Positions 49,057 to 59,525 of a stretch of 64,000 bases of DNA are shown in pieces. Source of the DNA: Dictyostelium discoideum (lineage: Eukaryota). Below the pieces are notes generated by a model. That model was given only the letters and a program-made list of their open reading frames with translations. It was not told the origin of the DNA and searched no databases. The stretch covers positions 4,544,001-4,608,000 of the forward strand of contig CM000154.2 of the NCBI GenBank assembly GCA_000004695.1, in the 5' to 3' direction. The translations under genes were made by a program, and so were the position numbers. How positions within the stretch are numbered: the stretch's first letter is position 1; every line of letters starts with the position of its first letter.

Positions 49057-49599
49057 TTAATTAATAGTTCTAAATAAATTTACATATTGATAAGAGGTAT
49101 GAAGATCTGAATAACTTTTTGGTAAAGTTGGATAAGCACTAAAATCAAAACTTGTTTGAATTGGTTCAGGGAATGGACCTAAATTTCCATTAATGAATTC
49201 AGATAATAACTTTGTACAATTGAAAGGAGAGGTAACGGGTGTTGAGCAAGCTGTATATTCCACTTCTACCAGTATACCTCTAATCTCAGTTCTGAATACA
49301 ATAGGACCAACTCTAATAATGAAATCACCCAATTCATATTTGCTTATTAATGCTTCAGTGGTTTGCCTCTTTTTATAGGAATTGGTTTTCTCTAGAATTG
49401 ATACCATCTCTCTATCAGTTTCGACGATTGTATCCCTGCAAACTGTAAAACATTTCTTTGGCTTTTCATCATACAATAGTAAATGAAATTCTCTTGGTAT
49501 TAAATTTGATCCATCTGGTACTCTCTCTAAATATAATGAACAATTAATTGTACCTGTTGATACTTTTATTCCTCCTAAAAATTCTATCCTTTTTGTCAT
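49057..49599 (-). CDS. med20: Mediator of RNA polymerase II transcription subunit 20 (MED20/TRFP-like).
   Basis: A 180-aa single-exon ORF. Its C-terminal half is collinear with MED20: [54 protein letters not shown] ... [11 protein letters not shown], against the human [28 protein letters not shown]...LLLEFLQSFLG...MVQYMELFNKI. Confidence 0.6.
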
Positions 49600-51607: not shown

Positions 51608-52123
51608 CTTCCGCTCCTTAGCCAACGCTAACTTTTTTTTTTTTTTTTTTTTTTTTAGAAAAATAAAAATATAGTTATTGATGGTAGAACATTTAATTTA
51701 CAAATTTGGGATACAGCAGGACAAGAAAGATTTAGAACAATTACATCATCTTTTTATAGAGGAGCACATGGCGTTTTAGTTTGTTATGACGTAACAGATC
51801 AACTTACATATAATAACGTTAGATTATGGATGCAAGAAATTCAAAGATATGCAGTACTTGGCGTTAGTAGAGTTTTAGTTGGAAACAAATGCGATCTCGA
51901 AGATAGAAAATTGGTAAACACATCAATTGCAAGAGAATATGCCGATAGTCTTGGTATTCCATTCATGGAAGCTTCTGCTGCAACTGGTGTTAATGTTGAA
52001 GAGGCTTTCATGGCAATGGCAAATGAAATTTATAGAAATCATATGGGTGGTTCAAAACCTTCTGTTGTAAACCCAGGAAGTGGAGGTACCAGTAACACTG
52101 GTGGTAAAAAAAAATTTTGTTAA
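51212..52123 (+). CDS. Rab1-like small GTPase. Exons (>=51212)..51281, 51436..51483 and 51659..52123. The initiating exon is unresolved.
   Basis: P-loop [20 protein letters not shown] |GTATGT; [16 protein letters not shown] |GTAAGT; [47 protein letters not shown]...[12 protein letters not shown]...[22 protein letters not shown]... All five G boxes are intact. The ATG at 51214 is out of frame with the P-loop exon (it reads MFLKFY*). The P-loop frame is opened by an acceptor, TTTACAG|, at 51210/51211. So a short upstream start exon probably exists, and I could not place it. The C-terminus is ...GGKKKFC*, which ends in a single Cys rather than CC or CXC. Confidence 0.75.
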
Positions 52124-52635: not shown

Positions 52636-54288
52636 TTAATGCATTAATTGACCACAATTATAAATATCTTGAATTAAAGTTGATTTTTGTAATGGTTTAC
52701 GAATATCATTTTCAAAGTTAACATCAACTCTAATTAATTTTCTAACAGTATTATTTTCATGAAGGATGGCACCTAAAGTTTTCCAAGTCATTTTTGGAAT
52801 GTTATATTTCTCTCTAATGTCATAGAGTATTTCATCTTCGGTACGATTGGCATACCAAATGTTAACACGATTCCATGCATGTTGACCCTCCTTACCTTTG
52901 TAATTCATTGCCTCTGGTAACTCTATGAAAGTGGTACGTGATGATATTAAATGATTGGATAGAGTATCTTCGAAATGTTGTTGAGTTTTCATATCGAACC
53001 AATGGAAAATTGATAAACAAAATTGGTACTCGTAGAGATGATTGTATTGTTGTGTCAATTGTTCAAACATTGATGGAAGTATACGAGTTTTGCATAGATA
53101 GTTATTGGTTAGGCCTAATTCATTGATTTTACTCTCGTGTATTGATGCGGCTGATTTATATTCGTTCATAGCTTCACCTTCAAAACTAAACACTGTTGCC
53201 TCTGGGAATTTCTGTGCCAATTGAATTGAAAAGAAACCTTGATTAGATCCATAATCAGCCATTTTACTACCTTCAACTTGTCTATTATCTAAATTTAATT
53301 CCCTTTCAATCATTCTCCATCTTGGTAAATTACGATATGGATGATATCCTTCAATCTTTTCACCTGGTATCTCTAATGCTCCAATCGACTCCAAATCACT
53401 CTTTGCATTCTTAAATAATATTTTCTCACTATCTCTCTTTGATTTTTGTACTTTTAATGGTGTTTGTGCTCCAACAAATATTAAATCAAATTCACTTTTT
53501 TTTTTTTTAAAAAAATAAAAAAAAAATATTAATTAGTATTAAATTTTATTATTATTATTATTATTATTGTTATTTATCTATTTATTTTTTACTTACGGTG
53601 GGAAAACAGTTTGAAAAATATATTGTGATCTTAAAACATGGAAATCAGATGTAACAATGAATAATCTTTGAACACCAATTTTTTGAAGATAGTTTAAAGT
53701 GAAACGTGCATTTTCAGCAGTATTGGATGAATTGTTTTCAATCAAGATGTCAAATGGTGAGACGTCATTTTGTAGAGCTATTTCATTCATTGCCTCAGCT
53801 TCTGAATTGAATGCTTTATCTGGATCACTTTGTTCTTCTTTACCTTTACCTGATAGAATTAATTTGGTTTTACCACCTTCAACATCATTCAATTTGGTAT
53901 AGTATTCACATGCCAATACAACACGCTCTTTTAAAATTTGTGTTGGCATACCATCTGAATGTAATGAATATCCTAATACAACAATTGCTGAATCATATTG
54001 TGTTACATTATCAATTTCACATGTACTTTGTTCTTCACTACATTGTTGAATTGTATTTTTATTAATTTTAATATTTTTATTATTGATATTATTATTGGCA
54101 TTATTATTATTATTGGCGTTATTATTATTATTATTATTATTATTATTGTTTTCAATATTCGATTTAAATGATACAAATGAAAGTAAATAAATTACTAGTA
54201 CTACTACAATTAAAATTCTAATTTTATTTTTGCTTGCGAATGCTGACACATTTTCAAATGTGTTTGACTGTTTTCTGTTATAAAACAT
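52636..54288 (-). CDS. Two-exon gene that fuses a DUF218 (YdcF/SanA/ElyC-like) domain to a class I SAM methyltransferase-like (FkbM-like motif I) domain. Exons 54288..53597 and 53494..52636. About 516 aa.
   Basis: - Exon 1: an N-terminal transmembrane helix (ILIVVVLVIYLLSFVSF), a poly-Asn linker, then DUF218: DSAIVVLGYSLHSDGMPTQILKERVVLACEYY...KLILSGKGKEE...SEAEAMNEIAL...ILIENNSSNTAENARFTLNYL...RLFIVTSDFHVLRSQYIF.
- Intron: donor CC|GTAAGT, acceptor AAAAAG|T (102 bp).
- Exon 2 is in phase: ...EFDLIFVGAQ...IPGEKIEGYHPYRNLPRWRMIERELNLDNRQVEGSKMADYGSNQGFFSIQLAQKFPEATVFSFEGE.... This gives motif I as DYGSNQGFFS, an acidic post-I residue, and LSIFHWFD as motif II-like. Confidence 0.65.
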
Positions 54289-54878: not shown

Positions 54879-55252
54879 AATAGTAAATAAATTTAGTTTT
54901 AAATAAATTCCAAATAGGGATGAAAAATTAAAAATAAAAAAAAAAAACAATTGAAGATAATGACAACAAATATCCATTTTTTTAAAAATAAAAATTTACC
55001 TCCAATTTTCAAATTTTTTTTTTTTTTTTTTTATTTTTATTTTTTTTTTATTTTTATTTTTTATTTTTTATTTTTTTTTCTTTATTAAACACATTTTTTT
55101 TATTTTATTTTTTCTTTTTTTATTTTTTTCTTTTTCCACTATCCCATTTGTTTTATTTCATTTTATTTTATTTTGTTTTATTTTTTTTTTTATTTTTATT
55201 TTTAAATGATACAACTAATACTTTGCAAATAGTATTAATATACTAAGAAACC

Positions 55253-55294
<42 letters not shown>

Positions 55295-55307
55295 GGCAAA
55301 AGGGTTA

Positions 55308-55308
<1 letters not shown>

Positions 55309-55405
<97 letters not shown>

Positions 55406-55413
55406 TAATAATA

Positions 55414-55466
<53 letters not shown>

Positions 55467-55467
55467 T
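55309..55467. repeat. (AAT)n microsatellite of about 50 units, immediately 5' of the Myb-repeat gene.
   Basis: A near-perfect run with two interruptions (AAAAAT, AGT). Confidence 0.95.
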
Positions 55468-55541
55468 TTTTAAATAACTATGGTTTTGAAAATAATCTAT
55501 TGATAAATGATGAACCGACCACGCCTTTAAACTTTTTTGAT

Positions 55542-59525
<3,984 letters not shown>

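Follow-up and report, generated by a model that had tools for sequence, protein, structure and literature searches.

The 64,000-nucleotide (nt) stretch of Dictyostelium discoideum DNA analysed here, called the window (contig CM000154.2, positions 4,544,001 to 4,608,000; coordinates below are positions in the window), has a G+C content of ca. 20% and coding tracts for poly-Asn and poly-Gln, as is typical of Dictyostelium. The gene in question lies on its minus strand, between the ATG start codon at 54288 and the TAA stop codon at 52636–52638. It is a real two-exon slime-mould gene, coding for a protein of 516 amino acids (aa) in which a predicted N-terminal membrane anchor is followed by a DUF218 domain and a C-terminal class I S-adenosyl-L-methionine (SAM)-dependent methyltransferase domain resembling that of the bacterial enzyme WbdD. 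The gene comprises the following features:

53597..54288, minus strand: exon 1, 692 nt, codons 1–230 and the first 2 nt of codon 231; open reading frame (ORF) from the ATG to the GT donor
53495..53596, minus strand: intron, 102 nt, GTAAGT...AG, 94% A+T, phase 2
52636..53494, minus strand: exon 2, the last nt of codon 231, codons 232–516, and the TAA stop codon
54166..54222, minus strand: predicted signal-anchor transmembrane helix, aa 23–41, IRILIVVVLVIYLLSFVSF (Kyte–Doolittle 19-residue mean 2.76)
54004..54165, minus strand: Asn-rich low-complexity stem, aa 42–95, of a length varying between strains and species
53597..53988, minus strand: exon-1 part of DUF218, aa 101–231, with GKGK from aa 147, T190 at 53719–53721, and H217 at 53638–53640
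53413..53494, minus strand: exon-2 part of DUF218, aa 231–258, with the last strand FDLIFVG and a helix carrying the invariant E254 (53425–53427)
52639..53349, minus strand: class I SAM-dependent methyltransferase domain, aa 280–516, WbdD-like, with no Pfam family

Gene structure and the DUF218 domain

The intron splits the codon of P231 (CC/T). Among all the GT..AG pairs tried in the region, the pair 53596/53495 yields the longest ORF, of 516 aa, and in the unspliced frame of exon 1 a stop codon lies directly past ...VFPP. The exons have a G+C content of 27–32% versus 12–18% in the 500-nt flanks, and the gene models of the orthologues in D. discoideum and D. citrinum contain the identical junction peptide, VFPPEFDLIFVG. 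An earlier note on this DNA had described a canonical, in-phase intron of 102 bp, and all the elements that it named are present within its coordinates. Its layout of one domain per exon had to be amended: the two domains are indeed in one frame, but the intron does not separate them. It lies within DUF218, of which exon 2 encodes the last β-strand and the invariant E254, and therefore exon 1 alone gives an incomplete domain. Nothing within the sequence argues more strongly for the splice than this interruption of DUF218. The splice is thus supported indirectly, by the continuity of the domain, the identical junction in the orthologue models, and the uninterrupted transcripts of relatives.

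The transmembrane helix proposed in the same note is located at aa 23–41, with five K/R residues preceding or opening it. It appears as helix 22–42 in the predicted model of P0003, a 97%-identical orthologue on which the full-length structure model was built, and an N-terminal anchor is kept in the orthologues and in most close family members. By the positive-inside rule, the K/R residues before the helix point to a type II (N-in) anchor with the remaining protein in the lumen, so that a lumenal location is predicted for both domains. The Asn-rich stem has a predicted local distance difference test value (pLDDT) below 50 at residues 42–79 of the orthologue model, and in both orthologues examined it differs from that of the window protein. 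The latter is 516 aa long versus 494–502 aa in the relatives from the D. discoideum complex and D. citrinum. No protein identical to it was found in the searches, the best match showing 97% identity.

The peptides VVLG, ILSGKGK, SEAEAM, NTAENA, and VTSDFHVLRS, quoted earlier as the signature of DUF218, are all encoded by exon 1, and aa 101–232 match PF02698 with 78 bits and an E value of 7.9e-22, far above the Pfam gathering cut-off of 27.6. None of the NCBIfam families listed for the window protein spans this region, and a word-indexed search with the DUF218 domain as a query gave no match. The domain has a YdcF-type α/β fold, whose C-terminal end is seen in the P0003 model as strand 219–225 followed by helices. 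T190, H217, and E254 (the last corresponding to the invariant alignment column E159) are invariant in 10 fused homologues, and they occur in the same order and with similar spacing as T125, H149, and E182 of SanA when compared by position, no SanA sequence having been aligned. Alanine mutants of these three SanA residues are inactive (PMC12176290). In the P0003 model DUF218 and the methyltransferase domain form one unit, with a predicted template modelling score (pTM) of 0.78 despite 54 disordered residues; judging from this model, the two catalytic-type domains, both presumably lumenal, appear to make up a single structural entity.

The nearest database proteins are hypothetical proteins of D. 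discoideum and D. citrinum. The fusion is found in at least six dictyostelids (strains of D. discoideum, D. citrinum, Polysphondylium violaceum, Tieghemostelium lacteum, Heterostelium album, and Cavenderia fasciculata), and also in Physarum polycephalum, Ceratiomyxa fruticulosa, Stenamoeba stenopodia, and Trimastix marina. Thus the architecture that the earlier note had proposed to look for in other Amoebozoa does occur there, and in Trimastix as well, including assembled transcripts with the fusion in a single ORF (two from Stenamoeba, and those of Ceratiomyxa, Physarum, and Trimastix). The dictyostelids other than D. citrinum, Physarum, and Trimastix were retrieved by an exhaustive search, as full-length proteins comprising the anchor, DUF218, and the C-terminal domain; a word-indexed search added D. 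citrinum, Ceratiomyxa, and Stenamoeba. In UniProt the homologues are named "DUF218 domain-containing protein", with the C-terminal half unannotated.

Stenamoeba stenopodia has two fusion paralogues. One of them, P0001, retains the DUF218 motifs, while in the other, P0152, and in its close relative P0153 from a Logan contig, the GKGK loop and the His are gone (TSDxH changed into AYDYA) and the methyltransferase domain is intact. In P0007 both the Thr and the His of DUF218 are lost, again with an intact methyltransferase. Such losses indicate that the methyltransferase is independent of DUF218 catalysis. One Logan contig, L001, encodes both domains with a 1-nt frameshift at ca. 535–560, which made the gene caller report two overlapping ORFs. 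Positions 1–21 of this contig are an Illumina adapter remnant (AGACGTGTGCTCTTCCGATCT), and hence the frameshift is probably an assembly error.

The C-terminal methyltransferase domain

The C-terminal domain escapes the family collections. Pfam and NCBIfam gave matches below the cut-offs (best E values of 0.2 and 0.0046, respectively), all of them confined to motif I and due to Methyltransf_31, FkbM, and CbiT, and a phmmer search of the PDB with the whole protein gave no significant match. Only one of ten family members scanned with Pfam (P0098) matched over this domain, weakly and in motif I alone, which indicates that Pfam has no model for it. Identification as an FkbM methyltransferase was considered and dropped, since TIGR01444 scored 17.4 bits versus a cut-off of 37.7 over ca. 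45 residues and PF05050 was not reported. The family was revealed by an exhaustive search of representatives (three-sequence profile, 1.84 billion), which returned 247 cluster representatives at E ≤ 1e-3 and 119 at E ≤ 1e-10; word-indexed homologue searches gave few relatives.

From the 33-sequence alignment described below, AlphaFold2 predicted for the C-terminal domain a seven-stranded class I topology with a β6–β7 hairpin (pLDDT 90.5, pTM 0.89). Foldseek matched the model with 628 PDB chains at E ≤ 1e-3, and all 50 of the matches listed have the SAM-methyltransferase fold. The suggestion of the earlier note that exon 2 carries a class I SAM-binding signature thus stands, and the outcome that it named as refuting, an exon 2 devoid of a methyltransferase fold, did not occur. 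Both quoted peptides, DYGSNQGFFS and FSFEGE, are present: DYGSNQG corresponds to motif I, and in FEGE it is the first E that serves as the β2 acidic residue. The Pfam check that it proposed for this domain was uninformative, and it is the family profile and the structure prediction that identify the methyltransferase.

Conservation was counted in an alignment of 33 sequences showing 25–55% identity to the window protein's C-terminal domain. D311, G317, S320, H395, and E422 are invariant, R289, G313, C365, Q388, S392, W396, P424, W444, and Y445 nearly so, and R482, R486, and D488 occur in 27 or 28 of the 30 sequences covering their region. The conserved elements, with their counterparts in WbdD, are as follows:

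53320..53346, minus strand: motif GYHPxRNxPRW at the N-terminus of the domain; Y281 in 28/33; R289 in 32/33, aligned to the SAM ligand R36
53236..53256, minus strand: motif I, D311-Y-G-S-N-Q-G317, predicted SAM-binding loop, aligned to LDLGCAQG; D311 (motif I D59) and G317 (motif I G65) in 33/33, G313 in 32/33
53179..53181, minus strand: E336, acidic residue at the end of β2, aligned to D82, a SAM (ribose) ligand; E/D in 31/33
53092..53094, minus strand: C365, Cys in 30/33
52999..53004, minus strand: H395-W396 in LSIFHWF; H395 in 33/33, corresponding to the essential H132; W396 at the position of the essential H133, Trp and not His in 32/33
52741..52761, minus strand: H476-x5-R482 in the β6/β7 hairpin, corresponding to H197-x5-R203; H476 (pocket residue H197) in 18/33, R482 (essential R203) in 28/30
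52654..52656, minus strand: C511, conserved C-terminal Cys

Judging by their conservation, C365 and C511 might be joined by a disulfide bond in the lumen.

The methyltransferase domain of WbdD is the top match of this domain in three independent comparisons, with a clear gap. The profile searched against PDB sequences matched WbdD with an E value of 3.5e-4, MePCE being next with 0.05 and all others having at least 0.1. Foldseek placed WbdD first (E 1.2e-8). Finally, hhalign aligned the family with residues 2–210 of WbdD with a probability of 97.9–98.5% and E values from 5.6e-13 to 2.2e-14, using a WbdD profile made from 80 WbdD-like loci and reduced to a 76-sequence alignment of the methyltransferase domain. 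Within the WbdD family the mapped positions are kept in at least 72 of the 76 sequences.

Close members of the new family are nearly all N-terminally anchored, as Golgi glyco-enzymes are, and the distant ones include giant proteins with GT2, GT1, and FkbM domains (FkbM in P0081). Standalone homologues of the C-terminal domain are encoded by four contigs (L002, 7060–7776; L003, 7253–7969; L004, 9632–10351; and L005, 4010–4729), all of which carry PhoH, and L004 and L005 also a T4 gp15-like gene. In these contigs the homologues are surrounded by T4-like phage glycan islands with RgpF, GT2, WcbI (L002 and L003 only), GDP-mannose dehydratase-type epimerase/dehydratase genes, and as many as six Sulfotransfer_2 genes, a content that suggests the phage-encoded synthesis of a methylated, sulfated glycan. 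P0156, a standalone phage homologue, has index entries in 92 blocks of the collection of contigs and appears to be widespread. Taken together, the anchors, the glycosyltransferase fusions, and the phage glycan islands place the whole family in the context of glycan modification.

Two members depart from the common pattern. The Physarum polycephalum transcript P0013 has an intact DUF218 but a degenerate methyltransferase motif I (ADYAGAHGPYFS), and it lacks the SLEGEA... segment; an error of assembly, a variant splice form, or a pseudo-enzyme could account for this. P0014, a 574-aa protein from an ENA metagenome, has no DUF218 and comprises two C-terminal domains in tandem, at residues 7–230 and 304–531.

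Candidate function and its alternatives

That the gene has the architecture described above and codes for an active SAM-methyltransferase fold is, at the least, highly probable. The substrate can be proposed with far less assurance. Methyl-phosphate groups on N-glycans of Dictyostelium have been known since 1984, and a membrane-bound, SAM-dependent oligosaccharide phosphate methyltransferase activity of the D. discoideum Golgi was reportedly described by Freeze et al. in 1992. A type II anchored, WbdD-like methyltransferase that is conserved among dictyostelids would fit this activity. D. discoideum, D. purpureum, and D. giganteum all share the modification, and in two species methyl-phosphate and/or sulphate is present on ca. 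20% of the glycans. The methyl-phosphate resides on a terminal α-1,2-linked mannose, unmethylated phosphate being rare, and its biosynthetic intermediate is N-acetylglucosamine (GlcNAc)-1-P-Man, made by Gpt1, whose gene, gpt1, has been identified (PMC6994554, PMC11795075). No gene for the methylation step is named in the literature searched, including these two papers, and a literature search for "phosphate methyltransferase" returned no paper. WbdD first adds a phosphate to the mannose at the end of the O9a polymannan and then methylates it, and the only phosphate that its methyltransferase accepts is one on α-1,2-mannobiose (PMC3482155). The substitutions H132A, H133A, R203A, and Y16F abolish methylation, and R203, H132, and H133 are credited with specificity for phosphate, the authors stating that none of the other known sugar methyltransferases has an equivalent of them (PMC3482155).

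The combination of a WbdD-like methyltransferase with methyl-phosphate on Dictyostelium N-glycans makes the window protein a candidate for the mannose 6-phosphate (Man-6-P) methyltransferase. Tentatively, we regard it as a lumenal glycan phosphate O-methyltransferase and as the best candidate for this enzyme; the phosphate acceptor and the N-glycan substrate are what we infer from the relationship with WbdD. The single spliced gene would give rise to a membrane protein of type II that belongs to the secretory pathway, with a short cytosolic N-terminus, the signal-anchor helix, and the Asn-rich stem preceding DUF218 and the methyltransferase in the lumen. SAM would be bound through motif I (D311...G317), E336, and R289, and the methyl group would go onto a phosphate monoester borne by a terminal mannose of the glycan and positioned by H395 and R482. 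The product in Dictyostelium would be Man-6-P-OCH3 on N-glycans. Methylation would follow the addition of GlcNAc-1-P by Gpt1 and the removal of GlcNAc, Gpt1 being the source of phosphate in place of a coupled kinase.

Several observations weigh against this assignment. Identity to WbdD is as low as 16–18%, and the PDB profile match, with its E value of 3.5e-4, is modest. The essential H133 of WbdD is replaced by Trp, and a His at the H132 position is not diagnostic, being also found in NodS and RebM, which do not act on phosphate (PMC3482155). No counterpart of Y16 could be placed, as the N-terminal region aligns poorly and the conserved Y281, although a candidate for it, is not aligned to Y16. 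The correspondence of R482 to R203, a match by sequence alignment with the H-x5-R spacing identical, lies in the least confident stretch of the hhalign alignment. No kinase gene adjoins the phage homologues, and Pfam detects no kinase domain in the window protein. The Physarum copy has its degenerate motif I, and the family is far wider than the taxa with reported methyl-phosphate glycans, so its members may differ in substrate.

Several of these points are shared by the foremost alternative, in which the methyltransferase is active on another acceptor: a sugar hydroxyl, as in the O8-type WbdD, a lipid-linked or polyprenyl phosphate, or a small lumenal molecule. The replaced H133, the His known from non-phosphate enzymes, and the phage homologues devoid of an adjacent kinase all speak for it, as does the Foldseek result, in which all 50 of the matches listed are methyltransferase-fold proteins. 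A further point in its favour is that the DUF218 proteins of bacteria have their site of action close to intermediates linked to undecaprenyl phosphate (PMC12176290). Set against this are the position of WbdD as the single best match by three methods and the retention in 28 of 30 sequences of the counterpart of R203, the residue without an equivalent in other known sugar methyltransferases. We know of no report of O-methyl sugars on D. discoideum N-glycans, and a phosphate-methylating activity still lacking its gene is known in this organism. We consider another acceptor less likely than a glycan phosphate, yet worth keeping in mind.

A different kind of explanation makes DUF218 the functional centre served by the methyltransferase, or the reverse, with the cofactor linking the two: DUF218 would bind or process SAM or S-adenosyl-L-homocysteine (SAH). 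It might, for instance, keep SAH from inhibiting the methyltransferase as a product where the compartment has no SAH hydrolase. YdcF binds SAM, the title of its PDB entry naming "an S-adenosyl-L-methionine utilizing enzyme", and both the modelling of the two domains as one unit and the conservation of their fusion across Amoebozoa agree with a shared cofactor. Nevertheless, SanA and ElyC act in the periplasm, where SAM is not expected, and P0152, P0153, and P0007 have lost the His and/or Thr of DUF218 and kept the methyltransferase intact, which renders this explanation rather improbable.

That the C-terminal domain is a catalytically dead, methyltransferase-like binding module is very improbable: its scores below the Pfam and NCBIfam thresholds and the degenerate motif I of Physarum would fit such a role, but D311, G313, G317, the β2 acid, R289, H395, and E422 are kept in 31–33 of the 33 sequences in spite of their divergence. 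As to two separate genes, or a pseudogene, with the fusion being an artefact of reading across an AT-rich spacer, the frameshift between the domains in L001 is found in an error-prone raw read assembly and the idea can practically be dismissed, given that exon 1 alone ends within DUF218, short of the last strand and E254, that the splice sites are canonical and in phase, and that single-ORF transcripts from four other genera and gene models from six dictyostelid species have the same architecture.

Within the preferred reading of the protein as a glycan phosphate methyltransferase, DUF218 is probably a hydrolase or a ligand-binding partner for the substrate or the cofactor of the methyltransferase; assigning to it either a preceding "uncovering" step or the handling of SAM or SAH is speculative. 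The boldest version is a bifunctional Golgi "uncover-and-cap" enzyme, in which DUF218 hydrolyses the Gpt1-made GlcNAc-α-1-P-6-Man and the methyltransferase caps the exposed Man-6-P. This is a long shot, but if true it would provide the gene for a modification described in 1984 and the first defined reaction of a DUF218 domain, and would suggest for SanA and ElyC of bacteria the cleavage of sugar-phosphate linkages in envelope intermediates that are lipid-linked. In any case, the locus is a concrete candidate, whose predicted catalytic residues can be targeted by mutation, and it defines a sizeable family of eukaryotic methyltransferases, unannotated and for the most part membrane-anchored, whose phage and bacterial relatives occur in glycan gene clusters. 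The presence of DUF218 beside an enzyme with a predictable substrate offers a handle on its chemistry, obscure even in Escherichia coli. The earlier note had raised the prospect of a novel eukaryotic enzyme. The proteins were already public, as uncharacterised "DUF218 domain-containing" ones; what is new is the reading of the C-terminal domain, its family, and the functional hypothesis.

Neighbouring genes and known systems

The gene is convergent with a Ras-family small GTPase gene, whose last exon lies at 51830–52123 on the plus strand (PF00071, E 2.4e-16; the product ends with ...GGKKKFC), with ca. 510 nt between the two stop codons. A 1341-aa ORF at 55500–59525 on the plus strand codes for two kinds of Myb-like DNA-binding domains (PF00249 and PF21227) along with acidic, poly-Gln, and poly-Asn tracts of great length. 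This ORF and the DUF218–methyltransferase gene are divergent and share an intergenic region of ca. 1.2 kb, the first 500 nt of which, next to the DUF218–methyltransferase gene, have a G+C content of 12%. The 101-aa ORF at 55243–55548 on the minus strand consists nearly entirely of Tyr codons and is an intergenic trinucleotide repeat, not a gene. A 180-aa ORF at 49057–49599 on the minus strand matches the Mediator subunit Med20 (PF08612, E 2.4e-36), and the ORFs of 379 aa and 980 aa beside it have no Pfam match. There are no tRNA genes in the window.

Among the known systems, FkbM methyltransferases share with the window protein the motif I pattern D-x-G-[AS]-N-x-G and the weak TIGR01444 match (E 0.0046), and an FkbM domain co-occurs in the distant relative P0081, but no FkbM structure is named among the top fold matches listed. 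MePCE/BCDIN3, a methyltransferase of the γ-phosphate of 7SK snRNA, is the second match of the profile. DUF218 of the window protein is related to YdcF, SanA, and ElyC by its Pfam match and its YdcF fold, and to the latter two also by the single N-terminal anchor and the predicted location of the domain on the non-cytoplasmic side of the membrane. It differs in being eukaryotic, interrupted by an intron, and fused with a methyltransferase, and the link with peptidoglycan or enterobacterial common antigen is impossible in an amoeba.

The closest parallel is WbdD of E. coli O9a and Klebsiella O3 (PDB 4AZS, 4AX8, and 4UW0), a phosphate O-methyltransferase capping the polymannose O-antigen with methyl phosphate. 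Judged by sequence and predicted fold, the methyltransferase of the window protein is most like that of WbdD, although it would not be filed in the WbdD family because of the 16–18% identity, the replacement of one essential His, and the missing kinase. WbdD has a fused kinase and a coiled coil, both absent from the window protein, and it is a cytoplasmic bacterial enzyme, whereas the window protein is eukaryotic, membrane-anchored, presumably lumenal, and fused with DUF218. Finally, the acceptor of WbdD is a 3-phosphate, while that expected for the window protein would be a 6-phosphate supplied by the Gpt1 route.

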